Shown here in pieces: positions 5,205 through 45,091 of a stretch of 64,000 nucleotides of DNA. The stretch's first letter is position 1. The number at the start of each line of letters is the position of its first letter. A program made the translations under genes and the position numbers. The DNA is from Vicinamibacterales bacterium. Its GTDB lineage: Bacteria; Acidobacteriota; Vicinamibacteria; Vicinamibacterales; UBA8438. The stretch lies in the NCBI GenBank assembly GCA_965202695.1, contig OZ241843.1, forward strand, positions 826,254 through 890,253, read 5' to 3'. Below the pieces are notes generated by a model. It was not told where the DNA came from. It was given only the letters and a program-made list of their open reading frames with translations, and ran no database searches.

Positions 5205-6131
5205 ATGCCTGGTTGCAGGACGGCGCCGCTCGGGGTTGCATCCCTGGACGAAGTCGCGCAAGTATCCCTGTTTTCATCGCTGGACCACTGTTCCGCCGAC
5301 GACGGTCGATTCATTCTGGCTTGCGGAGACAACTTGTCCTTCATGGAGCACCTTTCCAACGGACGGATGAAATTGATCGTCACGTCTCCACCCTACAACA
5401 TCGGCAAGGACTACGAGGCCAGGACTTCCCTGGATGATTACCTTGCCGTGCAGGAGCGCGTAATAAGCGAGTGCGTTCGCGTGCTTCATGCGCAAGGATC
5501 GCTTTGCTGGCAAGTCGGAAACTACGTCGATCATGGAGAAGTAATTCCCCTCGACGCGGTTCTGTACCCCGTCTTTCGCGCGCATGGACTCAAGCTTCGC
5601 AACCGGATCGTCTGGCACTTCGGGCACGGCCTGCACTGCACGAAACGCCTCTCCGGCCGATACGAAACGATCAACTGGTGGACGAAGAGCGACGACTACA
5701 CGTGGAACCTCGACGCCATCCGCGTTCCGTCGAAGTATCCGGGCAAGCGGCATTTCAAGGGGCCGAACGCCGGCAAGCTGTCCGGCAACCCGAAGGGCAA
5801 GAACCCGAGCGACGTATGGGAATTTCCCAACGTCAAGAACAACCATCCCGAGAAGACGATACATCCGTGCCAGTTTCCGGTCGAACTGGTCGAGCGCCTC
5901 GTTCTCTCCATGACCAACGAGGACGAAGCGGTGTTCGATCCGTACATGGGAGTCGGCTCGTCTGCCGTCGCCGCTCTCATGCATGGGCGCATAGCGTACG
6001 GATGCGACCTGGTTCCTGAATACGTGGACGTCGCCCGCGAGCGTGTTCGCCAGCTCCACGCTGGAACTCTCAAGACCCGCCGGATGGGCAAGCCTGTCTA
6101 CGATCCAGCGCTGCCGAACGGTGGACACTGA
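5205..6131 (+). CDS. Beta-class N4-cytosine/N6-adenine DNA methyltransferase (motif IV SPPY precedes motif I)
   Basis: LIVTSPPYNIGKDY (motif IV) is followed C-terminally by FDPYMGVGSSAVAA (motif I, FxGxG-like). An AGAGGA RBS-like sequence precedes the ATG at 5205; the alternative start is 5142. The region has visibly lower G+C than its flanks. Confidence 0.85.
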   Translation: MPGCRTAPLGVASLDEVAQVSLFSSLDHCSADDGRFILACGDNLSFMEHLSNGRMKLIVTSPPYNIGKDYEARTSLDDYLAVQERVISECVRVLHAQGSLCWQVGNYVDHGEVIPLDAVLYPVFRAHGLKLRNRIVWHFGHGLHCTKRLSGRYETINWWTKSDDYTWNLDAIRVPSKYPGKRHFKGPNAGKLSGNPKGKNPSDVWEFPNVKNNHPEKTIHPCQFPVELVERLVLSMTNEDEAVFDPYMGVGSSAVAALMHGRIAYGCDLVPEYVDVARERVRQLHAGTLKTRRMGKPVYDPALPNGGH

Positions 6132-6385
6132 TGCGAATTCTGGCCCGCTATTCACATTTGAATGGAGAAGAGTACCTGCTCGTTCACCGCAGGAAACTAT
6201 GGGACGAAGTGCAGGCGGTGATAGCGGAGGTGAACGCCCTTGCGTGCCGGACGAAGGTTTCCAGAGAAAGAACGATGCGCGGCAGAATGTTGTTTTCTCC
6301 GGGCGACATGAACCAAAGTTCAAGGACGGCCTTCACAGCCCGTGGTGAAAGTCGCCCATTCGGGCATTTCGGGAAATCGACATGA
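6131..6385 (+). pseudogene. Truncated restriction endonuclease remnant (BglII/BstYI-like N-terminal fragment, from memory)
   Basis: Its ATG overlaps the methyltransferase stop (TGATG). RYSHLNGEEYL..KLWDEVQAVI..RMLFSPGDMNQSSRTAF resembles my recollection of the BglII N-terminus (YNHADEILNPQLWKEIEETL...SLIFDPVGTNQYIKDEL). The similarity ends at 6335, where a family-1 repeat terminus begins. It has only 84 codons. Confidence 0.45.
6335..6356. repeat. Family-1 REP/MITE terminus fragment
   Basis: cagcccgtggtgaaagtcgccc matches the conserved terminus CAGCCCGTGGTGRAAC. Confidence 0.45.
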
Positions 6386-29951: not shown

Positions 29952-32900
29952 TCAGGCCGGCGCCGCCAGCTCCCGGAAGCGGCAGAAGGGGTTGGCCAGA
30001 CGCATCTGCTCGGGGGTGCGGCAGTCCGGCGCGAAGAGCGCCGGACTCGCGACGACGGCCGCCACGCAGCGGGCGCGGGACGTGGCGACGTTGAGGCGGT
30101 GCCGGCTGTAGAGGAACTCCATCCCGCGGGGGGCCTCGTCGGCCGTCGAGGTGGCCATCGAACAGATGGCTATCGGCGCTTCCTGCCCCTGGAACTTGTC
30201 GACCGTCCCCACCCGCGCGCCGGCCGGGAGCCGCGCGCGCAAGGCCGCGACGTGCGCGTTGTACGGCGCCACGACCAGCACGTCGGCCAGGGCCAGCGGG
30301 CGCCGCACACCCTGCGCGTCGACCCACGCGCCGCCGCCGCCGAGCAGCTCGTCGACGAGGTCGGCGACCCGCGCCGCTTCCTCGTCCGAGGCGTTCGTGT
30401 TGCCGGCATGCTCCACCGCGACGAAGCGCAGGCCGCGCCCGGCCAGCGGCCCCGGCCCGATCACCCGCTGCCGGGCCAGCTCCGGGCGCGCGCCCAGCCG
30501 TCCGTCGTAGAACTGTTCCGTCGTGAACGCGCAGACGTCCGGGTGCATGCGCCACGTGCGGTCGAGGAAGACGCCGCGCGCCGGGTCGACGGTCGCCGAC
30601 GCGCCCAGGAGATGACCGAGGGCGGAGACGTCGGCGCCCGACGGGTGGACGCCCTGGATCGGCTGATCGAGCTGACGCGGGTCGCCGAGCAGGACGAGGC
30701 TCCCCGCCGCCTGGCAGACGGCGAGGGTGCTGGCGAGGCTCATCTGTCCCGCCTCGTCGATGACCAGCACGTCGACCGCATCGGCCATCTCCTCGCGCGC
30801 CCACAGCCACGCGGTGCCGCCGGCCAGGTTGGCCTCGCCGGTGGCGAGCGCCTTCGCCACCTTCTCGTTCGAGCCGGCCGGGACGATGCGCGCGTCCGGG
30901 CAGCCGTCGCCGTCGTTCGCCTTCTGGACGCCGCGCACGGCGACCGGCGCCGGCGCGCGGCCCCGCCCGCTCCCGGCTCCGCCGACGGCGTCCGATCCGC
31001 GGTCGGCCGCCGCGCACACGGCGGCGAGAAGGTTGGAGATCACCTTGTGGCTGTTGGCGGTCACCCCGACCCGCATCCCCGCCGCGAGCAGATCGAGGAT
31101 CATCCGCGCGCCGGTGAACGTCTTGCCGCTGCCCGGCGGTCCCTGCACCGGCAGCACCGAGCGGTCGAGCCGCGGGGCGATGCGCCGGACCGCGTCCAGC
31201 GGCGTTTCTCCTTCCGCGGCCAGGCTCGCTCCGTCCGCGCGCGCCGCCGCCCCGAAGCGCGGCAGCGCGCGCCGCAACAGGTCGAACGCGGCGCGCCGCG
31301 GGCTGTCGGAGGCGAAACCGCGGGACGCGGCCTCTTGCGCCAGCCGGCCGATGCTCTCCTGCAGCACCCGGCTGTTGACCAGGTCGATCGGCACGAGCGC
31401 GGTCGGATGCGGAGCCGGCGAATTGCGCAAGCGCTTCAGGTCGATGACGCCCGCGGCCTCGTCGAGGGCGGCCACGCTGCCGCAGTAACCGCGCTTGCAC
31501 TCGTCGGATTCCGCGGTGGCGGGGTTCTTCGGCGCGTCGCCGACCTCCATCTCGTGGGACTGCTCGGGGAACCGGTAGCGGTGGACGACCGAGCGCTTCT
31601 CCTGCGCCACTTCACCGACGTGGGTCAGCGCCCCGAGCGTCGCCCGGCTCTCGACGTGCTCCTCTTCCGTGAAGCCGCAACGGGCGAAGAACTCCCACCA
31701 CGTGGACTTCTCCTCGCGCCGGTGGAACTCCAGCAGGTGCGCCAGCAGCCGCCGCGCCCGTCCGTCGTCGTCGGCCGGCGCCGCGTCGTCGGCCGGCGCG
31801 CCGCCGGTGAGCGCCTCGAACAGGGCCGCGACCCCGGCCGCCGACTCCCGCTCCCGTTCGCGCTCGTCGTCCCGCGGGGCCGGCCGCGGCGCCGGTTCGC
31901 CCGTCCGCGCCTCGATTTCGCGCCGGCGCTCCTCCAGCCAGTCGGCGAGACGCAGCGTCGAAAGGCAGTCGTCCCGGTTGTATCCTTCGACTTCGCCGCG
32001 CAGTTCGTCCGACGTCCCGCCCGCGACGCCCGCCTCCAGCGCCGCCTCGAACCGGACGAGCGCCCGCGTCGCCGCCGTCAGCCCGACCGCGCGCCGGAAA
32101 CCGTAGAACGGCTCCAGCTTCTTGATGGAATAGCGCTCGACCGAGGCCCGCAGCCCCTGCCGCACCACGCGGTGCAGGTCGACGAACACGTCGCCGCGGA
32201 GCAGACGGTCCACCTCCTCCCCGCGGGTGGCGTGCCGGCTCGTCAGGCGCTTGACCGCGGTCGTCTCGTAGGCGCCGTAGTGGTAGACGTGGAAGCCGGG
32301 ATGCCGCGCCCAGCGCGCCATGACCCCGTCCATGAAGCGCTCGAACGCGCGCTTCTCGTCCGGCGGGTCGAGCGCCCAGCAGGCGTCGTACCCGCCGGCC
32401 CGGTCCGCCACCCCGAACAGGTACTCGAACCCGCCGGCCCCCGCGAAGGCGTCGCCTTCGACGTCGAAGAATACGTCGCCGGCCGACGGCTCCGGCAGCG
32501 CCGCGAGCCCCTTGCCCCGCTCGACCGGCGTGACGAGCTCGCAGATGCGCCGGCCCTCGCGCCGCGCCCGATCCTGCACGCGCGCCTGCTCGCGGACGCG
32601 GGCCAGCGCGGCGGCGCCGACCCCGTCCAGCCGGGGGACCAGCGGCAGGTCGAGCGCGCCCAGATCGGCCATCGTCGCGACGCCGCGCGCCATGAGCCGG
32701 CGCCGCTGGCCGCGGGTGACGCCGGCGACCAGCGACAGATGATCGTCGGCCCGGCGCCGTTCCGCGCACGCCTGCTTCCACGCGCAGAGCGCGCAATGCT
32801 CGACCGGTTCCGGATACGTCTCCGGCGGCGCGTCGGCGTGGGCCTCGAAACGCCGGCGCACCGCGCGGTAGTACGCCGCGTACTCCACGACCCGGAAGCT

Positions 32901-33482
32901 CTCGAGGCCCGCGCCGTCGCCCCCGCCGAGGACAAGGCGCATCTGCCGGGGTTCGCTTCCCTGGGCCCGCGCCAGCAGGTCCGAGTACAAGAGAAGCTGC
33001 AGCAGCGCCTCGCCCTTTGCGCGGCGGGCCAGCTTCGCGTCGAGCACTTCGTACGACCAGCCGCCCAGCGCGCTGCGCCCGTCCACGCGGAGCAGGAAGT
33101 CGGGATAGCCGCTCCAGCGCCCGGCGTCGTCCTCCAGACGCCCCTGGTAGACGACGTCGACCCCGCGCGCCATCGCGTCGCGCGTGCGCACGGCCGCCGC
33201 CGCCGCGTCCCGCCGCGACAACGGCGTGTCCGCCTCGACGACCGTCTCCACCACGCGGCCTTCGGCCCTGAACCGCTCCACGAGCCGCCGCTCGTGCTCC
33301 ACGCCGCGCTGCCGCAGCACGTCGCCGCGGGGATCGTCGTACGGCGGCGGAGACTCGATCTCGCCGAGCGCGACGGCCCGGTTGAGAGTCGTCAGGTGGC
33401 TGCACGAGAGGTGGCGGGAGAGATCGGTGGCCGAGAACGCAAGCCGACCGGAGACGCGCCGCATGGGATCGGACGATAGCAC
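29952..33482 (-). CDS. RecB-like (TM0106-type, Cas4-like) nuclease fused to an SF1 (Upf1/DNA2-like) helicase
   Basis: N-terminal FSATDLSRHLSCSHLT...YEVLDAKL nuclease core with a Cys cluster (HCALCAW..C). C-terminal GPPGSGKT Walker A, VLVIDEAGQ Walker B, and VDKFQGQE / ...NVATSRA helicase motifs. Confidence 0.8.
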   Translation of the reverse strand: MLSSDPMRRVSGRLAFSATDLSRHLSCSHLTTLNRAVALGEIESPPPYDDPRGDVLRQRGVEHERRLVERFRAEGRVVETVVEADTPLSRRDAAAAAVRTRDAMARGVDVVYQGRLEDDAGRWSGYPDFLLRVDGRSALGGWSYEVLDAKLARRAKGEALLQLLLYSDLLARAQGSEPRQMRLVLGGGDGAGLESFRVVEYAAYYRAVRRRFEAHADAPPETYPEPVEHCALCAWKQACAERRRADDHLSLVAGVTRGQRRRLMARGVATMADLGALDLPLVPRLDGVGAAALARVREQARVQDRARREGRRICELVTPVERGKGLAALPEPSAGDVFFDVEGDAFAGAGGFEYLFGVADRAGGYDACWALDPPDEKRAFERFMDGVMARWARHPGFHVYHYGAYETTAVKRLTSRHATRGEEVDRLLRGDVFVDLHRVVRQGLRASVERYSIKKLEPFYGFRRAVGLTAATRALVRFEAALEAGVAGGTSDELRGEVEGYNRDDCLSTLRLADWLEERRREIEARTGEPAPRPAPRDDERERERESAAGVAALFEALTGGAPADDAAPADDDGRARRLLAHLLEFHRREEKSTWWEFFARCGFTEEEHVESRATLGALTHVGEVAQEKRSVVHRYRFPEQSHEMEVGDAPKNPATAESDECKRGYCGSVAALDEAAGVIDLKRLRNSPAPHPTALVPIDLVNSRVLQESIGRLAQEAASRGFASDSPRRAAFDLLRRALPRFGAAARADGASLAAEGETPLDAVRRIAPRLDRSVLPVQGPPGSGKTFTGARMILDLLAAGMRVGVTANSHKVISNLLAAVCAAADRGSDAVGGAGSGRGRAPAPVAVRGVQKANDGDGCPDARIVPAGSNEKVAKALATGEANLAGGTAWLWAREEMADAVDVLVIDEAGQMSLASTLAVCQAAGSLVLLGDPRQLDQPIQGVHPSGADVSALGHLLGASATVDPARGVFLDRTWRMHPDVCAFTTEQFYDGRLGARPELARQRVIGPGPLAGRGLRFVAVEHAGNTNASDEEAARVADLVDELLGGGGAWVDAQGVRRPLALADVLVVAPYNAHVAALRARLPAGARVGTVDKFQGQEAPIAICSMATSTADEAPRGMEFLYSRHRLNVATSRARCVAAVVASPALFAPDCRTPEQMRLANPFCRFRELAAPA

Positions 33483-33547: not shown

Positions 33548-33787
33548 TCATGGCTCGACGACAGGTCCCGCCGTGTCGCACGGTATCCGTTCGGCTCGTG
33601 CGCCGCGTTCTCCGGCGTCGTCCTCGCGGGGCGCCAGCGTACGGGGCGGGCACTGCACGTAGTTCCGGCCCGACTTGGCTTCCACGGCCTTGACGTGCCT
33701 GAAGATGGCTTCGAGGTCATCGTCGAACCGTGCGGCCAGCCGGTCTCGCGCGGCCCGCACTTCCGCCACGATGGGGTCGGTGGTCAT
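33548..33787 (-). CDS. Small partner protein of the upstream PIN protein (antitoxin-like, 79 aa)
   Basis: ATGA overlap with the PIN gene stop. IVAEVRAARDRLAARFDDDLEAIFRHVKAVEAKSGRNYV resembles small proteins I recall paired with this PIN family. Confidence 0.5.
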   Translation of the reverse strand: MTTDPIVAEVRAARDRLAARFDDDLEAIFRHVKAVEAKSGRNYVQCPPRTLAPREDDAGERGARAERIPCDTAGPVVEP

Positions 33788-34281
33788 CGTTCTCCATCCT
33801 CGTCCACGAGTTGTTCGGGCGTGCACAGCACCGGGGGATCGACGCCTGCTCCGCGACAGACCGATTCGATCCGCGGCCTGGACATCGCATTCGCAATGTG
33901 ACGGAAGTTCCACGTCACGAGAAACTCCACGCCGTGAACCGCGGCGATGGCGACGTGCGCCGCGTCTTGCGCCGCCCGTTCGGGAACGGCCCCGACACGC
34001 ACCAGACGCCGCGTCAGTTCCAGTGCTTCCGTCGGCGCCGCGAGCGTCGTCAGCGGCGCGAGGGCGGCAAGTCGGGCGCGGGACGCATCGTGATCGCCGA
34101 CGGCCGCTTCCTCCCGAACCAGTTCGGAAATCACGAGGTCGAACCGCTTGGGGGCAGTCTCCCACCAGTCGCGGGTGCTTTGTTGCCGGCCTGCGATCAC
34201 GACGTCGCGCGCCGGCCGCGCCGTCAGGTAGCTGACGATGCTGGTCTCGACATAGACGCGAGGTCTTGCGGATGCCGTCAT
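33784..34281 (-). CDS. PIN-like domain protein (VapC-family toxin candidate)
   Basis: VYVETSIVSYL (first acidic residue), LVISELVREEA, and AAQDAAHVAIAAVHGVEFLVTWNFRHI match a PIN-like layout. Confidence 0.65.
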   Translation of the reverse strand: MTASARPRVYVETSIVSYLTARPARDVVIAGRQQSTRDWWETAPKRFDLVISELVREEAAVGDHDASRARLAALAPLTTLAAPTEALELTRRLVRVGAVPERAAQDAAHVAIAAVHGVEFLVTWNFRHIANAMSRPRIESVCRGAGVDPPVLCTPEQLVDEDGER

Positions 34282-34405: not shown

Positions 34406-35602
34406 TCACGCCGCCTCCGGGACCCGGTTGGTCCGATAGGCTGATATCACTTCTTCCTTTATCAGTCCCCTGTGACCCAACCTCTTCGGAGCCAGCATCC
34501 TGTCCCGAATGGGATCTCTGAATCGGTCGAACAGCGCGAAACCCTTCTTTTCGATAATCGCATGCAGGACGTTCCACGTGCAAACTCTCACGCTTCCAAT
34601 CAGATTGTCCCCGCACACGACCACCAGACACGCATTGTCGTCCAGCGTGTCCCTTATCGTGTCGAACGCATTGTCCATGTCGTAGAAGTACCGATGAACG
34701 ACGGCGCACAGGCGGGGATTCCGCGACTTCAAGCTCCTCAACGCCGGCGCCAACGTGAAATCCCTTTCGATGGATTCCCGAGGCACCCCTTCCAGCAACC
34801 TTCCTCGTTCTCTCCCCACGAATCGTTCCTTCACGTCCTTCACCTTGAACGGCAGTACGTCTTCCAGCAGATGCAGCTCGAGCTTGAAGTTCCGAAAATA
34901 GTCCTGCGCGTTGATGTATGGCGGCGACGTGATGACGTGCGAGTGCCGCCCCAGGTCTCTGAAGCTCCGCCGCGGATCGCAAACGTCGGCGCAAGCGAAG
35001 CGGGATCCGACGCTCGCTTCGCGACCTCCCCCGTAGAGCATCGAGAGCTCTTCCAACAGCTTCAGCATGATTCCATACGGATCGAAATGCCGCCCCGCCC
35101 TCGAACGCCGCGCTTGCTGCGAGATGAACGGCTTCGGGCTTCGCTGATCCGCCCTGGAGCACAACCGGACCGCAAGAGCGTAACCGAGAAGAACGGGCCA
35201 ACATTCCGGGGTGCCCCGGAGAGGAACGCTCCTGCTGGCTGCTCTCAAGCGCTCGAATTTTTCGAGGGTGCCCGCCGTAAACCAGTAGCTCTTGCCGATC
35301 CAGTCAACCGGCAACGGTTCGATCGGGCGTTGCGCCTCGGCAATCCACGCCTTGCCGAGCTCCCGGGCGCGATCCAAGTCGAATCCCTGGACCTTCACGC
35401 GGTAGAACAACTCCGAGATCGGGTTCAAGTCGACACCTGAAACCCGAAGTCCGGCTCGGTTGGCCGCGGCGGCTATCGCACCCGATCCGCAAAATGGATC
35501 GAGAACGGAATCCGCCTCGGCCGCGTATCGCCGGATCAGCCGATCCGCCAGCCGGGACACCATCTTGCCCGGGTAGCGGTCCAGTCTCGTGGCCAGTCTC
35601 AT
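34406..35602 (-). CDS. Stand-alone DNA methyltransferase (N6-adenine/N4-cytosine; motif I N-terminal, motif IV SPPY ~230 aa later)
   Basis: ATG at 35602 overlaps the upstream stop (ATGA). VLDPFCGSGAIAAAA is motif I and HVITSPPYINAQDY is motif IV. Low G+C relative to the window. Confidence 0.8.
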   Translation of the reverse strand: MRLATRLDRYPGKMVSRLADRLIRRYAAEADSVLDPFCGSGAIAAAANRAGLRVSGVDLNPISELFYRVKVQGFDLDRARELGKAWIAEAQRPIEPLPVDWIGKSYWFTAGTLEKFERLRAASRSVPLRGTPECWPVLLGYALAVRLCSRADQRSPKPFISQQARRSRAGRHFDPYGIMLKLLEELSMLYGGGREASVGSRFACADVCDPRRSFRDLGRHSHVITSPPYINAQDYFRNFKLELHLLEDVLPFKVKDVKERFVGRERGRLLEGVPRESIERDFTLAPALRSLKSRNPRLCAVVHRYFYDMDNAFDTIRDTLDDNACLVVVCGDNLIGSVRVCTWNVLHAIIEKKGFALFDRFRDPIRDRMLAPKRLGHRGLIKEEVISAYRTNRVPEAA

Positions 35603-36549
35603 TTGCCGCCAGCCGTCTTGAGCACCCAGGTCGGACCGATTCCCGTGGAGAAGAACGCGTGGTTGTGCCGAAGCGGTCCCGCGTAGACGATCGCCGGCGG
35701 GTCGTCCGCCTTCCTGACGTAGTCGTAGATGCCCAACGTCTGCGGCTTGGTGCCCAGCGGACAGATGATCCGCGCGAAGCCACCCCTCCCCGACCCTCCG
35801 AGAACGTCCGTGAGAGTCGCGCTCGCCGCGGCCGGGTCCAGCGCATCGATTTTCCGAACCTCCTTTCTGCCGACCACGGTCAGAAGGTCGTGGTTGAACT
35901 CCTCCGTCCTTCCGGTCCAATCCGGCCTGTACGGTGGATCGGGGACCGCCAACGTCGTCTTCATCGGCTGGATCTGTTCATAGACCGCCATCGCCCGGTC
36001 GCCCTCGTATCCCAGGAACAGTATCAAGTGAACGGGGCGGCTGAGGTCGGGACAGGCGGAAAAGCCGGGAGCCTGTTGGAGAGAGGCGAGTCCAAACGAA
36101 AGCGGAACGTACCTGGAAACCAGATAGTCGCCCGGTTCGCTGTACACGACGTGCAGTCGGTCCCACAGACCGTGGTCGTCGAGCCACCGCAGCATCATCA
36201 GCAGGTGTCGCTTCGTGAAGACGGAAATGTCGATGACGACGGCCCGGCCGGCGGACCGCTCCATGGACCGGCGAAGCTCGTCCATGTTCGCGCGAAGGCT
36301 CGTGACCGCGTCGGCTTCCGTGAACTGAAGAACCGTCAACCGGGCGCCGAGCTTTCGGAACGCGGATTCCATCTGTCGATGGTTCCTTTCGCGCGCGGGG
36401 CTCTCGTCGTCGTAGTGAAACAGGACTACTTCACGCGGCGACCAGGCCTGCGCGCGAGTCAGAAGCCCCTTGCACCGATCCTCATGGCTGGAACAAGTGA
36501 TCAGCACCGCCCCGTCGGGCAGGCATCCAACCGTCAGCGGCCGCCTCAT
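35599..36549 (-). CDS. Uncharacterised 316-aa protein, middle gene of the TIR-NTPase/MTase operon
   Basis: ATGA overlaps at both ends (36546-36549 and 35599-35602). Alternating beta-strand-like hydrophobic runs (VLITCSS, VVLFHYDD, VVIDISVFTK, HLILFLGYEGD, ARIICPLGTKPQ) suggest Rossmann-like alpha/beta folds. No family recognised. Confidence 0.6.
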   Translation of the reverse strand: MRRPLTVGCLPDGAVLITCSSHEDRCKGLLTRAQAWSPREVVLFHYDDESPARERNHRQMESAFRKLGARLTVLQFTEADAVTSLRANMDELRRSMERSAGRAVVIDISVFTKRHLLMMLRWLDDHGLWDRLHVVYSEPGDYLVSRYVPLSFGLASLQQAPGFSACPDLSRPVHLILFLGYEGDRAMAVYEQIQPMKTTLAVPDPPYRPDWTGRTEEFNHDLLTVVGRKEVRKIDALDPAAASATLTDVLGGSGRGGFARIICPLGTKPQTLGIYDYVRKADDPPAIVYAGPLRHNHAFFSTGIGPTWVLKTAGGK

Positions 36550-38819
36550 TCGTCTTCCCCCATCTGGAACAAGGGGCGATTCCGCGACGTGTCGCTGTTG
36601 GAATTCTCCATCGCCTTCTTCAATCTGCGCACCGCGTGCTCCCTCGTGTCGGGTTGAAGCAGGCCCTGCAAGTCGGAGCACCGGACCGTGGTTCTCCAGC
36701 GGAGACGCGGACTGATCTGCAGGACGGGAGCGTAGACCCGGCAGATGTTGAATTCGACCGGCTGTGGATCGGAACCGTGCTTCGGCTTGAACGCCGGGAG
36801 ACCTTCCTTGGTCTGAAAAACCCCTTCCCGTTCGCCGACCGCAAGGACGCGTTTCAACGCCTTCATGGAGTCTTTTGCCAGTACTTCCGGGTCCGCGATC
36901 GTCAAGCGCGCCGCCTCCAGCTCGCTGGTGTGCCTGAGCAGCTTGTGCCGAAGACAGGCGCCAAGATCCAGCAAGAAGTACTTCAATTCTTCGCCGTGCC
37001 GCTCGACGTTGCGACTGAGCGTCGTGAGGTTGTCCTGGGAAACGATATGAACGGCTCTCGACTGCCGATCCGGCGGAAGAACGAGCGAGCCGGCCGGCGG
37101 AGACTCGGCGCCAAAGGTGAGGTGATAGCCGACGCTCAGGAATTCCTGGAAATAGCGGATTACCCCGGATCCCAGAAGCGCGAGCTCCTTGAAACCCGCG
37201 AACCGTTTCTCCTGTTGACGGCCGGACTTCGCGAGAAGGACTCGATAGAGCGCCGCTTGACCCCAGTAAGTTTTCTTCTCCCGTCGTTTTTCGTCCGGCA
37301 GGCTCTCGAATCGTTCAGGCGCGAGCTTGCTGAGCTTGGCCACTTCCGCGAGACACAGGGATGGATCCACCTCCGGGTCACCAAAGCCGGGCAGAAGTTC
37401 GTCCATGTCGAACGGCCGATCGTCGTCGAGCGTGACCATGTTCCTGACGATGTGCCGCAACAGCTCACGATAAGCCTTCTTCTGGTCCGCATCCTGCAGG
37501 TTGTAGACCAGAGGAACCCTCGTATAATCGTGAATCTCCTGCAACTCCTGACCGGTCGTCGTGGCCGGCGTATCTCCGCTCGCGAGTTTCTTGGCAATCT
37601 TGATCGAAAGATGTGGCGGACCGAGCTTGATCAGGCCGTTGACTATCCGTTGCTGGTAAGAAAACAGATTCTCGTATTCGTCGAGCAGAACGACGAACAT
37701 CGACGATTCGAGCGTGGGAACGGCTCTGCGCACCAGGAGCACGACGCGCTTGAATTGCTCCAGGTCGAACGTCGCCATCGGAACGGACGCCGCTTCCTGA
37801 TAGACGAACTTGCGCCGGATGAATTCCGCCAGTCGCTTGTGCGCACTCGACAGCTTTGCTTGCAGTTCCGCGAAGGAAACGATCCTGCCGTCCGTGGAGT
37901 CGAACAACAGCTCGTCCGCCGCTTCGCAAATACGTGGCTCGATATTCCTGCCGTACTCAATCAGATCATGCGTGACGCAGTACTCCAGTTCTGAAAACAG
38001 GCTTTCCGTCATTTGCAGCATCAGTTCCTGGGCTGCAACGTCCGTGAGGATGGCCTCGGCGGCCGAATCCAGGCGTTCGGCATCGAAACGGGCTCCAATG
38101 TTGCAAAGCGCCCCGCGAGTGAGCTTCAGGTAGAATCCGAAACGTCGGGGCGCCGTTTTTTCGGAAGGGCGCCGTTGCAGAAAGTTGCGCGCACGCAGAG
38201 ACAGCAGCAGCATCGACTTGCCGGTGCCCCGGGAGCCTTCGAGAATGCAGGGTGTCATTTCCTCCAGCGCGCCGATCTTGACGGTGTCCGGCGGCGCGAA
38301 CGTCTTGGCGTGAAGCTTCGGCTGTTTCTCGAAGTATTCCGCTCGAAGATGACGGAAAGGATTTCCTGAATCCGGCCTGAACGCCTCGGAGACCAGGGAC
38401 GACGCGGTCTGGTCGCTGAACAGCACCGCGCAGACCTCCTCGACCAGTTTCTTGACAGAATCCCGGTCGTCCGGTTCCAGCCGCCCGTACACCTTGGGTC
38501 CAAGTATCGGCGGCACAGGCGTGTCGTCCAGTCGGACGACGATGCACCGCCCGCCGTCGGCGGCGACCTCGTTCCAGACGGCGGCTTCGACTTCGAGATT
38601 CTGCCATCTTGCGGAACGAGTGTGCTCGGACAAGAGAATGATGATCGCGGCGGCGGCGCGGATCTCCTCGTTCATGAATGCGATGGCGCTGTCGCCAAGG
38701 CCGAGATCCTGCGTGTCGACCGTCGCCTCATGGCCCGCATTGCGGAGATGCTTCACCAGAGCGGTCGCGATGCCCGCGTCGGGGCCGGCGTGGGAAACGA
38801 AAATGCGTCTGATGCCCAT
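36546..38819 (-). CDS. TIR domain fused to a P-loop (ORC/Cdc6- or STAND-like) NTPase, 757 aa
   Basis: N-terminal IFVSHAGPD...IIILLSEHTRSARWQNLEVEAA is a TIR layout with the W-x3-E catalytic context. Walker A GSRGTGKS (aa 195-202), Walker B FVVLLDE (aa 375-381). Long helical C-terminal region. Confidence 0.8.
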   Translation of the reverse strand: MGIRRIFVSHAGPDAGIATALVKHLRNAGHEATVDTQDLGLGDSAIAFMNEEIRAAAAIIILLSEHTRSARWQNLEVEAAVWNEVAADGGRCIVVRLDDTPVPPILGPKVYGRLEPDDRDSVKKLVEEVCAVLFSDQTASSLVSEAFRPDSGNPFRHLRAEYFEKQPKLHAKTFAPPDTVKIGALEEMTPCILEGSRGTGKSMLLLSLRARNFLQRRPSEKTAPRRFGFYLKLTRGALCNIGARFDAERLDSAAEAILTDVAAQELMLQMTESLFSELEYCVTHDLIEYGRNIEPRICEAADELLFDSTDGRIVSFAELQAKLSSAHKRLAEFIRRKFVYQEAASVPMATFDLEQFKRVVLLVRRAVPTLESSMFVVLLDEYENLFSYQQRIVNGLIKLGPPHLSIKIAKKLASGDTPATTTGQELQEIHDYTRVPLVYNLQDADQKKAYRELLRHIVRNMVTLDDDRPFDMDELLPGFGDPEVDPSLCLAEVAKLSKLAPERFESLPDEKRREKKTYWGQAALYRVLLAKSGRQQEKRFAGFKELALLGSGVIRYFQEFLSVGYHLTFGAESPPAGSLVLPPDRQSRAVHIVSQDNLTTLSRNVERHGEELKYFLLDLGACLRHKLLRHTSELEAARLTIADPEVLAKDSMKALKRVLAVGEREGVFQTKEGLPAFKPKHGSDPQPVEFNICRVYAPVLQISPRLRWRTTVRCSDLQGLLQPDTREHAVRRLKKAMENSNSDTSRNRPLFQMGEDE

Positions 38820-38856: not shown

Positions 38857-41800
38857 TCACACCCGGAACACCTTCATCACCTCGTCGCCCAGGTGGTTGA
38901 TCACCTTCACGGCGATGCGGCCGGACGCGGGGCGGGGAAACGGGCGCGACGTGTCGCTGCGCAGGGTGGCCCACGCGTCGGGGTCGATCTCGGCCTTGAG
39001 CGTCGTGCGGAGCGCCTTGTACGGGTCGTTGGCGCCGAGGAAGTAGGCGTGGCGGACGAAGAAGCTCTCGTCGTTGTAGTCGGTGTCGATGAACCAGCAG
39101 GCGATGCCGTCGGGGCCGTCGCTGCGGACCTCGCCGGTGTTGGGGTGGAAGACGTCGACGCCGGCGATCCGGACCCGGATGCGGCCGGCGTCGGGCTTGT
39201 CGCCGCCGCCGGGCCTGTCGCCGCCGCCGGGCCTGTCGCTGGTGCCGGGCCTGTCGCCAGCGCCGGGCGTGTTGCCGGAGCCGGACTTGTCACCGGCGCC
39301 GGGGTCGCCGTGCGAATCGTCACCGTCGGCGGGCAGGATCTCGACGTCCGGCTCGCCGAAGACGACGAACAGGTTGCCCTTGCCGGTGTTCTTCAGCTCG
39401 CCGGCCATGTGCAGGTCGGCGTTCATGCGCGCCTTCAGCACGGGCAGGGCGCCGAGCCTGCTGAAGTCGGTGGTGTGCGGTTCGTAGTTGAAGGCGCAGG
39501 CGATCAGCACGTCGAAGCCGGCGTAGCCCGCTTCGCGCGCGGCGCGCACGAGGTCCTGCCGGCTCACCGTGCCGAACTCGGGGCCGACGAGGATGCCGGC
39601 ACGCCGCTCGGGGCCGTCGTCGTCCTCGCTTTCGACGTAGCGGCCCTGGGCGCAGATCAGGTGACCGGGCCAGGGGTCGAGCGCGGTGAAGCGGATGCGG
39701 TCGGCCTTGCGCGCCTGCTGCACGCCGGCGGTGGCGAGGTGGCCGAGCACCATCGCGGCGAAGTCTTCCGCCGACCCGTAGGCGGGGGCCTGCTCGGCGA
39801 CCCGGTCGATCAGCTCGTCGCGCTCGTCGAGGGCCAGCAGGCGGTGCGGCGACAGGCTTTCGACGGTGAACGGGCCGGCGACGCGCACCTTCTTTCGGTC
39901 GTCGTACGGCTTGTCGTAGAGGTATTCGACGTCGGCGCGCGCGGCGATGGAGGCGTCGATCTCCCGCTGCCGCGCGATGCGCGCCTCCCACCACCGGCGG
40001 TGCGCTTCGGCCGCGGCGGCCGGCCACGGGTCGCGCGGCCCGGCGGGGAGATCGGTCAGCGTGTAGCGGCGGTCGAGCGCGGCGTTGACGGCGCGCAGGG
40101 CGGCGGCGCGGTCGGCGTCGGTCCCGGCTGCTTCCAGACGCTTCCAGGCCGCGGCGGCCGCGGGGGGCCACGGCTCGCCGGCGTCGCGCGGGATCTCCCA
40201 CTCCCGCCACGACCGGCCGAGCGCGGCGTTCAGGTCGGCGCGGAGCGGCTCGAGCGTCTCCTGCCAGCGTTCCCAGATGACGTCGATCTCCGCGTTGTTG
40301 GCGATCGACTTGAGGGTGACGTGCGGCACGCGCTCGTAGACGAAGCCCTGCCGGACGTCGCCGCGCGTAGGCGCCTCGGACGGGGCCGCGCCGGTGATTT
40401 CGGCTTCCTTCCGCTGTCCCTCCGGGCTGTCGGCGAGCAGGTAGTAGGGGTAGCGCGCGCCCATGATGCGGGCGCGGGCGAGCGCGAGGGCGACGCGCGA
40501 CGTGTCGATGGTGATCCAGCGGCGGCCCCACTGCTCGGCGACGTAGGCGGTGGTGCCGGATCCGCAGGTGGGGTCGAGGACCAGGTCGCCGGGGTCGGTC
40601 GCGAGCAGGATGCAACGTTCGATGACCTTATTGCTTGTTTGAACTACATAGGTGAGTCCCGTGCCAAGTTGAACAGATTCCCATCTGTCATTTAGAGGAA
40701 CGACAGCAAAATCATCGATACGCCGGATGTATCTGATCGTTCGTCCACTAGAACGAACGCGTCCAGCAGCAGCAAGTCTCGTCAAACCTGCGAAGTTGGA
40801 TTTGGACGTTCCCTGGCCGGGCATGTATGCTACGCCTTGATAAACAAACTCAAGAAGATCTCCTTCTCCTTTCGGGCGAGCGCTCGTCAACGACGTAAGC
40901 TGACATCGTATAACCGCGCCAGCGGTTTCACCGTTTGATTCGTCATCGAGATCGCTTTTGTTCAATCTGCGAAGAGTGCCGTCTTGCGCAATAGCCATAT
41001 CGTAGCGTTCAAGTGTAGTACTCCCGGGTCTGCGTTCCGCATAAAGCCGGCGGTACTTCACTCGTTCAATATTCCTTGCGAAAACCAAAAGGTAGTCGAT
41101 GGTCTGCGGAACAAGTGTTTGATCCGTTGAACCCGTTTTTTGGAAACCTATTGTACCGACGTAATTGTCTCGTCCGAATACCTCATCCATCAGCGCCCGC
41201 ACCCGGTGGACGTTCTCGTCGCCGATCTGCACGAAGATGCTCCCGCTCTCCGTCAGCAGCTCCCGCGCCACGGTCAGCCGGTCGCGCAGGTAGGTCAGGT
41301 ACGAGTGAATCCCGTCGCGCCACGTGTCGCGGAACGCCTTCACCTGCTCGGGCTCACGGCTGATGTGCTCGGCCTTGCCGTCCTTGACGTCGCGGCTGGT
41401 GGTGGACCACTGGAAGTTGGAGTTGAACCGGATGCCGTAGGGCGGGTCGAGATAGATGCACTGCACCTTGCCGCGCAGCCCCTCGCGCTCGGCCAGCGAC
41501 GCCATCACCTGGAGGCTGTCGCCCAGGATCATCCGGTTCGACCAGTTGGCGTCGTGCCGGTAGAACTCGGTGCGGGCGTCGCCGGCGGGCAGGCCGTTGA
41601 AGTCGGCGAACAGGTCGGGCTGCCCGTCCCCGCCCCCGGCGCCCGCCTGCCGCGCGCGGGTCTCGCGCCGCAGGTCGTCGACGAGGACCTTCGGGTGCAC
41701 CTTCTCCTGGATGAAGAGCGGCGGGGCGGGCACGACGAGGTCGGACCAGTCCGCGAGGTCCTTGCCGCGCCAGACGAGCTGCGGGTCGAGGTCGCGGTTG

Positions 41801-41943
41801 CGGCGCTTCCAGGCGGTGCGGACCGGCTCCTGCTCGGCCGGGCCGAGGACCGGCTCGAACTCGGCGGTCGGGATGTTCCGGCGCGAGGCGGCGCCGTGGG
41901 TGAGGGTCTCGACCGTCCTGGGTTTCTTCGGTGTCCGCGCCAT
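38857..41943 (-). CDS. mod: Type III restriction-modification methyltransferase (Mod), beta-class N6-adenine MTase with long C-terminal extension
   Basis: ATG at 41943. IYLDPPYGIRFNSNF (motif IV) precedes VLDPTCGSGTTAYVA (motif I), with a divergent low-G+C TRD between them. The upstream part of the 1160-aa ORF overlaps vapC and is rejected. Confidence 0.85.
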   Translation of the reverse strand: MARTPKKPRTVETLTHGAASRRNIPTAEFEPVLGPAEQEPVRTAWKRRNRDLDPQLVWRGKDLADWSDLVVPAPPLFIQEKVHPKVLVDDLRRETRARQAGAGGGDGQPDLFADFNGLPAGDARTEFYRHDANWSNRMILGDSLQVMASLAEREGLRGKVQCIYLDPPYGIRFNSNFQWSTTSRDVKDGKAEHISREPEQVKAFRDTWRDGIHSYLTYLRDRLTVARELLTESGSIFVQIGDENVHRVRALMDEVFGRDNYVGTIGFQKTGSTDQTLVPQTIDYLLVFARNIERVKYRRLYAERRPGSTTLERYDMAIAQDGTLRRLNKSDLDDESNGETAGAVIRCQLTSLTSARPKGEGDLLEFVYQGVAYMPGQGTSKSNFAGLTRLAAAGRVRSSGRTIRYIRRIDDFAVVPLNDRWESVQLGTGLTYVVQTSNKVIERCILLATDPGDLVLDPTCGSGTTAYVAEQWGRRWITIDTSRVALALARARIMGARYPYYLLADSPEGQRKEAEITGAAPSEAPTRGDVRQGFVYERVPHVTLKSIANNAEIDVIWERWQETLEPLRADLNAALGRSWREWEIPRDAGEPWPPAAAAAWKRLEAAGTDADRAAALRAVNAALDRRYTLTDLPAGPRDPWPAAAAEAHRRWWEARIARQREIDASIAARADVEYLYDKPYDDRKKVRVAGPFTVESLSPHRLLALDERDELIDRVAEQAPAYGSAEDFAAMVLGHLATAGVQQARKADRIRFTALDPWPGHLICAQGRYVESEDDDGPERRAGILVGPEFGTVSRQDLVRAAREAGYAGFDVLIACAFNYEPHTTDFSRLGALPVLKARMNADLHMAGELKNTGKGNLFVVFGEPDVEILPADGDDSHGDPGAGDKSGSGNTPGAGDRPGTSDRPGGGDRPGGGDKPDAGRIRVRIAGVDVFHPNTGEVRSDGPDGIACWFIDTDYNDESFFVRHAYFLGANDPYKALRTTLKAEIDPDAWATLRSDTSRPFPRPASGRIAVKVINHLGDEVMKVFRV
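39193..39318 (-). repeat. Seven in-frame 18-bp tandem units inside mod (Gly/Asp/Pro-rich hexapeptides)
   Basis: Units of gggc(c/t)tgtcgcc(g/a)(c/g)cgcc encode GDPGAG-DKSGSG-NTPGAG-DRPGTS-DRPGGG-DRPGGG-DKPDAG. Confidence 0.8.
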
Positions 41944-41960
41944 GACTGCTGCGCTCTCGT

Positions 41961-42359
41961 TCACGTCTCCCATACCGTCTCGACGTGCGGGTAATCGAGA
42001 ATCCTCGCATCGGCCGTGACGACGGGCGCCGACAACCTGCGGGCTTCCGCGACGATGATCCGATCCGCCGGGTCGCGGTGGAACGGGACAGGCAATGCAT
42101 AGGCTTCTTCGACGGTCCCCAGTTCTACCGGCAGCACCGTCCAGCCGTTCGATTGCACGTGGCCCCGGAACCAGCGGCGCCAATGCCGATCGAGTTCGAT
42201 ACGCCCGCGCTCCGCGGCGCACGCGATCTCGGCGCAACTGATGGCGGAAACGCATACCTTCGTATCGGCCGTTTCCAGGATCGCGACGACCCGGTCGGGA
42301 AGCCGCTCGGGTTCGCTGACCGCCCAGATGATCGCGCAAGTGTCGAGTACGACCGTCAC
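41961..42359 (-). CDS. vapC: PIN-domain toxin VapC
   Basis: VVLDTCAIIW (first Asp), SAISCAEIA, HRDPADRIIVAEA and VVTADARIL are canonical PIN acidic-residue positions. 4-bp overlap with the upstream antitoxin. Confidence 0.85.
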   Translation of the reverse strand: MTVVLDTCAIIWAVSEPERLPDRVVAILETADTKVCVSAISCAEIACAAERGRIELDRHWRRWFRGHVQSNGWTVLPVELGTVEEAYALPVPFHRDPADRIIVAEARRLSAPVVTADARILDYPHVETVWET

Positions 42360-42604
42360 GACGGTTTCTTCCCCAGCATCTCCCAGTCGCCGAGCGGGAT
42401 CATGGGGTCGACCAGACTCTTCTTGACGACGACCGACCCCCTGCCGGAGCCGAGTACCGTCCGGTTGCGTTGATGGGCCGGGATCGGGACTACGCGGGCG
42501 AGAGGCGTGTTCCGTTTCCGGATCTCCAGCTCCTCTCCGTTCTGGACGGCGGCGAGGTACTCGCTCAAGTGGTTCTTGAACTCCGCGACGTTGGCTATCT
42601 TCAT
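42356..42604 (-). CDS. Phd/YefM-family antitoxin
   Basis: MKIANVAEFKNHLSEYLAAVQNGEELEIRKRNTPLARVVP is a Phd/YefM N-terminal fold signature. ATG at 42604. Confidence 0.75.
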   Translation of the reverse strand: MKIANVAEFKNHLSEYLAAVQNGEELEIRKRNTPLARVVPIPAHQRNRTVLGSGRGSVVVKKSLVDPMIPLGDWEMLGKKPS

Positions 42605-42663
42605 GGCCGCATTATAGGCCCTGTCCGAGCGGGGCCGTCCGGGCGCGGCGTTCGTCGCGGCTG

Positions 42664-42915
42664 TCACCGGTTACCCGCGCGTGGGTCGGAATCCGTGGCG
42701 GCCACGGGACGGAGCCGCGCCGCCGGAACCGTGGCCACCGCCGCCGTGCCGCCGTCAAGGGTCAGAAACTCCACCTCGAAGGCCCGGCCGTCGCGATAGA
42801 CGTGCACGATTGTGCCGACGTCTCCCGCCTTCAGGCGCAGGCCGGGAACGTCCTCCGTGAGCACGATGCGATCATGTTCTTCCAGCATCGCTCGTCCGGC
42901 CCGTGGCAGTTTCAT
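42664..42915 (-). CDS. DUF4926-domain protein
   Basis: HDRIVLTEDVPGLRLKAGDVGTIVHVYRDGRAFEVEF matches my recollection of DUF4926. An alternative start is at 42888. Confidence 0.55.
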   Translation of the reverse strand: MKLPRAGRAMLEEHDRIVLTEDVPGLRLKAGDVGTIVHVYRDGRAFEVEFLTLDGGTAAVATVPAARLRPVAATDSDPRAGNR

Positions 42916-44137: not shown

Positions 44138-45091
44138 ATGCCTGACCGAACCGCGCGTCACGTCCACGGCCCCCCGGACGCCTGGACGGTCATCGACGGC
44201 CGCCCGGACGAGACCGAACTGCGGCCCGTCCTCGACGCCATCGCCGCGGCCGTCGATCCGGACCGCATCATCGTGTTCGGCTCCGCCGCCCGCGGGACGA
44301 TGACCGCCGACAGCGACGTCGATCTGCTGGTCGTCAAGCGCACCGACGACCTGCGCGCGCTCCGCGCCGCCGTCCGCGCCGCGCTGGCCGCCAACCGGCG
44401 GCCGGTCGACGTCGTCGCCGGCACGCCGCGTATGCTCGACGAGCAGCGTCGATGCCTGAGCATGGTGTACGGCCCCGCGTTGCGGGACGGGGTCGTCGCC
44501 TGGGCCCGTGGCGCCCGCGAGACGACGGGCGCTCCCGCGTGGAGCACGCTGCCCGAACGGAAAGGAACCTCCGGCGAAATGGTCCGAACCCTGCGCTTCC
44601 GCCGCGAGGAAGCGGACACGTGGCTTGCCAAAGCTCGGGAAGATCTGACCGTGGTGAACACCACCGACGCGGCGATTCCCTTCGCGCCGCGGGCGTACAG
44701 CGCGCAGGCGGCGACGGAGAAGGCTCTCAAGGCGCTGCTCGTGGCGCACGGGCGGCCGGTTCCGTTCGACCACGATCCGGACACGCTGGCCGACCTCGCC
44801 GTCCAGCAGGGCGAAGCGCTGCCGGCCGTCGCCGCCCGCGACGCCCTGGAAGCGTTGTCCGACTACGGCGGACCGGCGCAATACCCGCACTACGGCGGGG
44901 AGGCCGACCCGGGCGCCGAAACCCTGTTTCCGGCGATCGCCAACGAGATGACGGCCCACGCGGCGTCCCGCGTCGACGCGATCCTGCGTGGGAAGCGCCC
45001 CCGGAAGGCCGCGGGCGACGCCGGTCGGCCCGACCAGGAAGGAAAGCGTCCGGGCCGGAGCGGTCCGGCTGGCGAAGAATCAAGCGACTGA
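44138..45091 (+). CDS. Fused minimal nucleotidyltransferase (MNT) + HEPN-domain protein
   Basis: IIVFGSAARGTMTADSDVDLLVV is the GSxxRG...DxD NTase motif. The C-terminal helical region ADTWLAKAREDL...EKALKALL...YP has a HEPN-like layout. Confidence 0.6.
   Translation: MPDRTARHVHGPPDAWTVIDGRPDETELRPVLDAIAAAVDPDRIIVFGSAARGTMTADSDVDLLVVKRTDDLRALRAAVRAALAANRRPVDVVAGTPRMLDEQRRCLSMVYGPALRDGVVAWARGARETTGAPAWSTLPERKGTSGEMVRTLRFRREEADTWLAKAREDLTVVNTTDAAIPFAPRAYSAQAATEKALKALLVAHGRPVPFDHDPDTLADLAVQQGEALPAVAARDALEALSDYGGPAQYPHYGGEADPGAETLFPAIANEMTAHAASRVDAILRGKRPRKAAGDAGRPDQEGKRPGRSGPAGEESSD

Follow-up and report, generated by a model that had tools for sequence, protein, structure and literature searches.

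A tandem CARF protein partnered with an ORC-CDC6-like ATPase in a methylase-linked three-gene operon of a Vicinamibacterales bacterium

We analysed a three-gene operon in a 64,000-nucleotide stretch of DNA from a Vicinamibacterales bacterium (assembly GCA_965202695.1, contig OZ241843.1, positions 826,254 to 890,253), referred to below as the window. The middle gene encodes a 316-amino-acid protein that is, in our view with little room for doubt, a tandem CARF protein of the CARF6 clade partnered with an ORC-CDC6-like ATPase. The ATPase and the tandem CARF look like the conserved core of the system, and the three-gene set looks like a horizontally mobile defence module. We favour a reading, for which confidence and doubt are about evenly balanced, in which the tandem CARF is a regulatory subunit, gated by a ligand, of an abortive-infection system that is modular and linked to methylation. 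The features of the operon, in window positions, are as follows.

36546..38819, minus strand: upstream partner, a 757-amino-acid protein with a TIR domain and an ORC-CDC6-like AAA+ ATPase (Pfam TIR_2, ORC-CDC6-like)
38442..38804, minus strand: TIR domain of the ATPase, residues 6-126, with candidate catalytic Glu76 (Pfam, alignment)
36699..38363, minus strand: ORC-CDC6-like ATPase region, residues 153-707 (Pfam)
36546..36549, minus strand: ATGA stop/start overlap of the ATPase and CARF genes (translational coupling)
35599..36549, minus strand: CARF gene (CARF6 family), 316 amino acids from ATG (open reading frame, PADLOC CARF6, AlphaFold, Foldseek)
36055..36522, minus strand: CARF lobe 1, residues about 10-165 (secondary structure, conservation, lobe-lobe hhalign)
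35608..36054, minus strand: CARF lobe 2, residues about 166-314 (secondary structure, conservation, lobe-lobe hhalign)
35599..35602, minus strand: ATGA stop/start overlap of the CARF and methylase genes (translational coupling)
34406..35602, minus strand: downstream DNA methyltransferase, 398 amino acids (Pfam N6_N4_Mtase, PADLOC MTase_II)

The ATG of the CARF gene overlaps the stop codon of the ATPase gene (ATGA; junction GACGAATGAGGCGG), and its own stop codon overlaps the ATG of the methylase gene in the same way (junction GGCAAATGAGACTG), so the three genes are translationally coupled. The CARF open reading frame (ORF) is a real gene, as judged from its guanine-plus-cytosine (GC) content by codon position (0.67/0.48/0.75, for the longest ORF in frame, inside which the CARF gene lies) and from its many homologues of like length. 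We found 428 homologues in the 90% database and 774 cluster representatives at E <= 0.001, nearly all of 310-340 amino acids. Since the start methionine is common to the homologues, the length of 316 amino acids is right and a 360-amino-acid extension from a GTG is ruled out. The GC content of the operon is 0.61, compared with 0.73-0.74 in the surrounding genome and flanks, and its third-position GC is approximately 0.70-0.75 compared with 0.93-0.96, which points to horizontal acquisition. The closest relatives of the CARF protein, with up to 86% identity, come from Vicinamibacterales metagenome-assembled genomes. Scanning this high-GC DNA for promoters and terminators gave nothing useful.

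The AlphaFold model of the protein, built with a 76-sequence alignment, has two Rossmann-like alpha/beta lobes, spanning approximately residues 15-160 and 173-311, and high scores (predicted local distance difference test, pLDDT, 94.6; predicted template modelling score, pTM, 0.93). In both lobes the predicted secondary structure fits the order of the CARF core, beta1-alpha1-beta2-alpha2-beta3-alpha3-beta4-alpha4-beta5-beta6. Using Foldseek against the PDB, the model matched the CARF domains of Thermus thermophilus TtCsm6, Cam1 and Can1 with probability 1.00, Can2 with 0.98, the ring nuclease Sis0455 with 0.97 and Cad1 with 0.63. Can1 (PDB 6sce, TMq 0.51) was the sole PDB match to span both lobes. 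Aligning the profiles of the two lobes with hhalign gave a probability of 95.2% (E 2.7e-8, 133 columns) and paired SSHE-DRC with GYEGDRA and DISVF-TKRH with CPLGTKPQ (motifs I/I' and II/II', see below). This homology between the N- and C-lobes indicates that the protein is an internally duplicated tandem CARF, and as a model-based fold assignment the tandem CARF is solid. The two lobes presumably form a pseudo-dimeric pocket like that of CARF homodimers.

These results agree with much of the original prediction, which had been made by eye from the sequence. It proposed two alpha/beta lobes of Rossmann or CARF-like type, as the model, the Foldseek matches and the CARF6 profiles now confirm, and every strand that it named is a predicted beta-strand of the model. 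It had also seen no clean PD-(D/E)xK, HNH or GIY-YIG motif, and none of Pfam, PADLOC, NCBIfam, PDB sequence searches and Foldseek, the last with CARF domains at the top, pointed to a nuclease for the protein by family, fold or motif. Neither Pfam nor the AlphaFold model showed an effector or enzyme domain, and a search of viral folds in BFVD returned generic Rossmann matches only. The prediction that the protein belongs to no recognisable family was correct for Pfam and NCBIfam, which gave no significant match, and for PDB sequence searches with the protein and with its 76-member profile, which gave noise only. It did not hold for PADLOC-DB, where nine models named CARF6--CARF_CARF_CARF matched with E-values from 2.3e-25 to 7e-6.

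The best CARF6 model (E 2.3e-25) aligned residues 15-309 with profile positions 17-299 of 308, which places the protein in the CARF6 clade. The protein resembles this clade in its near-full-length profile match, its size of approximately 300 amino acids and in being made up solely of CARF domains, without an effector. It differs in that the label implies three CARF units whereas the model and hhalign show two. The PADLOC models of the clade, PDLC01911-01923, carry no function or partner genes, and the CARF6 label reportedly follows the 2020 census of CARF and SAVED domains by Makarova and colleagues. Weak Pfam matches were found to HFX_2341_N (12 of 76 family members) and CARF_Card1 (3 of 76), and in some family members to Csa3_N. 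No name for members of the cluster was found in NCBI or other sources, and a scan of viral contigs gave no relatives.

CARF domains hold their ligand at the loops after beta1 and beta4, which carry conserved motifs of the type [DN]x[ST]xxx[RK]. In a set of 76 diverse members sharing 21-78% identity, the most conserved positions of the protein are the CARF loop signatures at these two places. Lobe 1 carries motif I (C19-S-S-H-E23-D-R25-C) after beta1 and motif II (D107-I-S-V-F-T-K113) after beta4, and lobe 2 carries the corresponding motifs I' (L-G-Y-E182-G-D-R185-A) and II' (P264-L-G-T-K268-P-Q). K268 is the sole invariant residue, while E23, R25, D107, E182, R185 and G266 each occur in 90% or more of the members. 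One sub-branch of the family (P0238, P0242, P0262 and P0224) has an extra C-terminal tail of approximately 110 amino acids with a conserved VYYSDPF, and one of its members has a weak match to DUF5678. This sub-branch is also encoded directly downstream of an ORC-CDC6-like gene (locus L045, 6001-7311).

We examined the genomic context of the family in some 45 loci of bacteria and archaea, from Acidobacteriota, Planctomycetota, Nitrospirota, Latescibacterota, Verrucomicrobiota, Bacteroidota, Spirochaetota, Thaumarchaeota, Bathyarchaeota and others. In every informative locus the CARF gene lies directly 3' of an ORC-CDC6-like (Pfam PF24389) gene, and the CARF protein, ATPase and methylase diverge roughly in step. 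The exceptions to this synteny are decayed loci, where the ATPase gene is missing or interrupted by an insertion sequence (IS). In L009 (3933-8004), the closest relative, whose CARF protein is 86% identical, an ISL3-like transposase ORF splits the TIR-ATPase gene. L022 and L023 have insertions of approximately 1-1.8 kb in this gene, and in L013 and L020 the ATPase is lost and the CARF gene is intact. That the CARF gene is kept where the ATPase is split or lost suggests that the ATPase-effector is costly to carry.

The ATPase of the window matches TIR_2 (E 1e-18, residues 6-126) and ORC-CDC6-like (E 7.9e-51, residues 153-707) in Pfam, and its Walker A (G195-S202) and Walker B (V376-E383) motifs are intact. 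No solved relative of it could be detected by sequence in the PDB. Glu76 of the TIR domain is invariant in 16 aligned homologues; with this catalytic glutamate intact, the TIR domain is probably an NADase.

While the ATPase and CARF stay together, the effector attached to them is exchanged. The N-terminal TIR is found in the close relatives and in L032. In L008, L035 and L037 the ATPase has instead a C-terminal extension of approximately 380 amino acids with weak matches to CAP12-PCTIR_TIR (6 of 9) and Nuc_deoxyrib_tr (3 of 9). An AlphaFold model of the L008-type extension had an overall pLDDT of 57.5 and was usable only for its last domain (residues 335-462), which resembles DNPH1 and nucleoside 2'-deoxyribosyltransferases (NDTs) with probability 1.0 and TM 0.6-0.69, at weak E-values. 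In L038, L040, L041 and L042 a separate PRTase-CE gene (Pfam PF24390, E 4e-28 to 8e-44) lies upstream. The gene order of this variant is PRTase-CE, then a TIR-less ORC-CDC6-like ATPase, then the tandem CARF (L038 4881-9821; L040 635-5706; L041 3064-7014; L042 1814-5833). The consecutive Pfam accessions PF24389 and PF24390 suggest that at least the PRTase variant has already been described by someone. In L033 and L036 a helical N-terminal domain of approximately 200 amino acids that matches no family takes the place of the TIR (5488-6141 and 5546-6175, respectively); its N-terminus is hydrophobic, and the domain could be an effector that acts on membranes. The loop motifs of the CARF stay the same across the TIR, NDT/DNPH1-like, PRTase-CE and helical variants. 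TIR, NDT/DNPH1 and PRTase enzymes all attack the N-glycosidic bond of nucleotides, and with this shared chemistry the output looks like NAD+/nucleotide depletion by interchangeable warheads.

The methyltransferase of the window matches N6_N4_Mtase in Pfam (E 1.1e-12) and MTase_II in PADLOC (E 1.5e-19), has motif I DPFCGSG at residues 35-41 and motif IV SPPY at 226-229, and weakly matches the putative modification methylase 2zie in the PDB. A DNA methylase adjoins the CARF gene in most loci, usually an N6_N4_Mtase and usually downstream. It lies upstream instead in L035 and L037, and an N6_Mtase/Eco57I-like enzyme replaces it in L038 and L040, so that the adjoining methylases come from at least two unrelated families. 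In L041 and L042 a Dcm-type restriction-modification system (Dcm/NgoFVII/Vsr) adjoins the locus. In-frame fusions between neighbouring genes of the set were also found in nature: P0173 (643 amino acids) is a CARF-methylase fusion with a real 29-residue linker, P0264 (a 289-amino-acid fragment) is a second one, and P0177 (a 276-amino-acid fragment) joins ATPase and CARF.

In the mechanism that we propose for a ligand-gated regulatory subunit, the methylase would mark host DNA and so supply the self mark, as in restriction-modification and BREX. The ATPase, with its intact Walker A and B motifs, would act as a switch by which the effector is assembled and activated. The conserved loops of the tandem CARF would hold a small nucleotide-type ligand, and the protein, as a bound subunit, would license or restrain the ATPase. 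The outcome would be NAD+/nucleotide depletion and abortive infection. A more specific version, which we regard as possible but doubtful, is that the tandem CARF senses, without any cyclase, a host or phage-altered metabolite, such as a housekeeping second messenger or the balance of S-adenosylmethionine and S-adenosylhomocysteine, and that with the ORC-like ATPase it couples epigenetic self-marking to the depletion of NAD+ or nucleotides. A precedent for cyclase-less sensing is TIR-SAVED, which defends a haloarchaeon by responding to c-di-AMP of the host, with no need for its cyclase (bioRxiv 10.1101/2025.06.19.660554).

Several points weigh against a ligand-gated regulatory subunit. A ligand synthase (cyclase, Cas10 or CD-NTase) was seen in none of the loci, and the ligand may not exist. 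The E-x-R and E-G-x-R of motifs I and I' are unusual, since CARF domains that bind cyclic oligoadenylates typically have Gly, Ser or Thr there, and the conserved loops might just as well serve as a surface for protein-protein contacts or for catalysis. The full-length superposition on Can1 is poor (Foldseek, root mean square deviation 14.9). Methylation is not obligatory, as no methylase adjoins the CARF gene in L006, L031, L034, L041 and L042. The fusions are metagenomic gene calls, and the two fragments, P0264 and P0177, could be artefacts of assembly or gene calling.

Other roles for the protein were weighed on the same evidence. The original prediction had suggested that its lobes receive the product of the TIR; in this case the TIR would make a signal derived from ADP-ribose on infection, which the tandem CARF would bind and feed back on the ATPase or methylase. 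The logic of a TIR signalling to a Rossmann-like sensor is established in Thoeris, the TIR here has its invariant catalytic glutamate, CARF is a nucleotide-sensing fold, and faint TIR-like signals are present in several of the non-canonical effector domains. However, there is no effector domain in the CARF protein that could be switched on, and the TIR is fused to the ATPase in the manner of a terminal effector and is not a free-standing signal generator. The loop motifs are, moreover, the same where the effector is a PRTase-CE, an NDT/DNPH1-like or a helical domain, whose products would differ. We therefore consider such a receiver rather unlikely here, and unlikely as a general rule for the family. 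An off-switch of the Crn1 type, either an enzyme that degrades the effector-triggering nucleotide or a sponge that sequesters it to guard the host from autoimmunity, would fit the architecture of an effector-less, stand-alone CARF, which is that of ring nucleases, and Sis0455 is among the structural matches. Polar residues conserved in the close relatives (H22, E23, R25, H115, E138, H174, D184, H295 and N296) suggest chemistry, although most of those histidines are not kept in distant members. The loci that retained the CARF gene beside an IS-disrupted ATPase are also in line with an off-switch, given that they suggest the ATPase-effector to be the costly part. On the other hand, the system has no known signal synthase, and strict translational coupling and the ATPase-CARF fusion are more readily explained by a subunit than by a free enzyme, which leaves the off-switch a rather improbable reading.

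The tandem CARF could also be a ligand-free adaptor, a scaffold that bridges methylase and ATPase much as BrxB or HsdS-type subunits do, in a complex that methylates self and responds to unmethylated DNA. The fusions in both directions (CARF-methylase in P0173 and P0264, ATPase-CARF in P0177) and the position of the CARF gene mid-operon, with overlaps on both sides, are what an adaptor would predict, and BREX is a case in which accessory subunits can be required by an ORC/Cdc6-type ATPase and a methylase (PMC12839542). What makes the adaptor improbable to us is that the top-conserved residues are the canonical CARF ligand loops, and that the methylase varies in position (upstream in L035 and L037) and in some loci is missing or comes from another family, with no change in the CARF. 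Least credible, to the point that we rejected it, is a restriction endonuclease forming a Type II-like restriction-modification pair with the adjoining methylase. The neighbouring methylase gene and a size like that of many restriction endonucleases would allow it, but no catalytic PD-(D/E)xK, HNH, GIY-YIG or PLD fold, motif or profile was found and the confident fold is CARF. In addition, the gene is tied to the ATPase in every informative locus and not always to the methylase. A housekeeping enzyme was likewise rejected.

Among known systems, Can1 (6sce) is similar in having two non-identical CARF domains in one polypeptide, which form a pseudo-dimer that binds cyclic tetra-adenylate (cA4). 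Can1 differs in having nuclease domains and acting downstream of Cas10, whereas the protein here has no effector and no CRISPR or cyclase link. An ancillary CARF effector of type III CRISPR was rejected, with no cas genes in the Pfam-annotated neighbourhoods and no effector domain. Ring nucleases (Crn1/Sso2081 type; Sis0455, PDB 7z55) are also CARF-only proteins without an effector domain, but they are homodimers of approximately 170-190 amino acids that degrade cA4, cleaving cyclic oligoadenylate independently of metal, and are encoded in type III CRISPR loci, unlike the tandem fusion in a non-CRISPR operon described here. SAVED proteins (TIR-SAVED, Cap4) resemble the tandem CARF as fused CARF-like pairs; they sense nucleotides as a monomer, have a TIR NADase as their output and do not always need a dedicated cyclase. 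Here, in contrast, sensor and TIR are on separate proteins with an AAA+ ATPase between them. SAVED was rejected, as no SAVED model of PADLOC matched, no SAVED chain was in the Foldseek top 50 and no CD-NTase was present in the annotated neighbourhoods.

Thoeris (ThsB TIR and ThsA SLOG/Macro) likewise places a TIR protein in one operon with a nucleotide-binding protein of Rossmann-like type, but its sensor is fused to a SIR2, TM or other effector and its TIR stands alone. Here the TIR is on the ATPase and is replaceable, and a methylase is present. A ThsA analogue was rejected for the TIR-ATPase fusion, the weak ThsB-type matches (E 4e-4 or worse) and the lack of an effector domain in the CARF protein. 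BREX and its related systems (BrxC/DUF499 and PglX) are defence loci that also have an ORC/Cdc6-clade AAA+ ATPase, a DNA methylase and small accessory subunits (PMC12839542). The operon is not a BREX member: it has three genes and no PglZ, BrxA, BrxB or BrxL, its ATPase belongs to PF24389 rather than to BrxC/DUF499 and carries a suicide effector, and BREX has no CARF component.

In the window the operon is flanked by toxin-antitoxin pairs, a further methylase and a nuclease-helicase. It belongs to a larger island: on one side of the three genes lie a Phd antitoxin, a PIN toxin and a large CcrM-like N6_N4 methylase, and on the other a 165-amino-acid ORF. The features of the island outside the operon are as follows.

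38857-42339, minus strand: ORF of the large CcrM-like N6_N4 methylase
41961-42359, 42356-42667 and 33784-34281, minus strand: further island ORFs (Phd/PIN pair and 165-amino-acid ORF)

The 165-amino-acid ORF is PIN-like by eye and has no Pfam match at E <= 1e-4 and no NCBIfam match at E <= 1e-3. The island flanks are common only to the closest relatives (L001/L012, L009, L010, L013 and L020) and are not kept in distant loci, which indicates that the mobile core is the three genes. Inside the large methylase ORF, positions 39184-39303 form an 18-nucleotide tandem repeat (6.7 copies, 81% match) that encodes a linker rich in Gly, Asp and Pro, and the L001 orthologue of this methylase is split into ORFs of 786 and 215 amino acids near the position of the repeat. 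On the minus strand, 29952-33482 encodes a 1176-amino-acid protein with a TM0106-family RecB-like nuclease (TIGR03491, E 1e-82) and an IGHMBP2/Upf1-like superfamily 1 helicase (AAA_11/AAA_12), possibly a separate defence gene adjoining the operon. On the plus strand, 44138-45091 encodes a 317-amino-acid protein with NTP_transf_2 and HEPN domains that resembles a fused MNT-HEPN toxin-antitoxin pair.

The novelty of these findings is in function and system logic and not in the fold, since the CARF family and the ATPase family have already been catalogued computationally (PADLOC CARF6, Pfam). No paper or experiment on the operon was found in the searchable literature under CARF6, HFX_2341, ORC-CDC6-like or PRTase-CE, and no named defence system in PADLOC-DB v2 or NCBIfam 20.0 covers it. 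The 2014 CARF paper goes no further than mentioning a 'fusion of two CARF domains'. In the operon, CARF-type sensing and a TIR-type effector are combined with neither CRISPR nor a cyclase and are joined to an AAA+ switch and a methylase.

To our knowledge, nearly all that is understood of CARF domains concerns their role as receivers of cyclic oligoadenylates made by Cas10. The family described here is widespread in bacteria and archaea, has no cyclase or CRISPR link and is locked to an ORC/Cdc6-like ATPase. With three genes, a confident model and clear point mutants, the system is readily tractable. If the tandem CARF is indeed a cyclase-independent metabolite sensor, the system would be a distinct defence class, with CARF signalling outside CRISPR and CBASS, restriction-modification logic and interchangeable TIR, NDT and PRTase warheads. 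The identity of the ligand would reveal what CARF proteins sense outside CRISPR, and would also show how a self/non-self mark based on methylation is wired to TIR-type suicide effectors.

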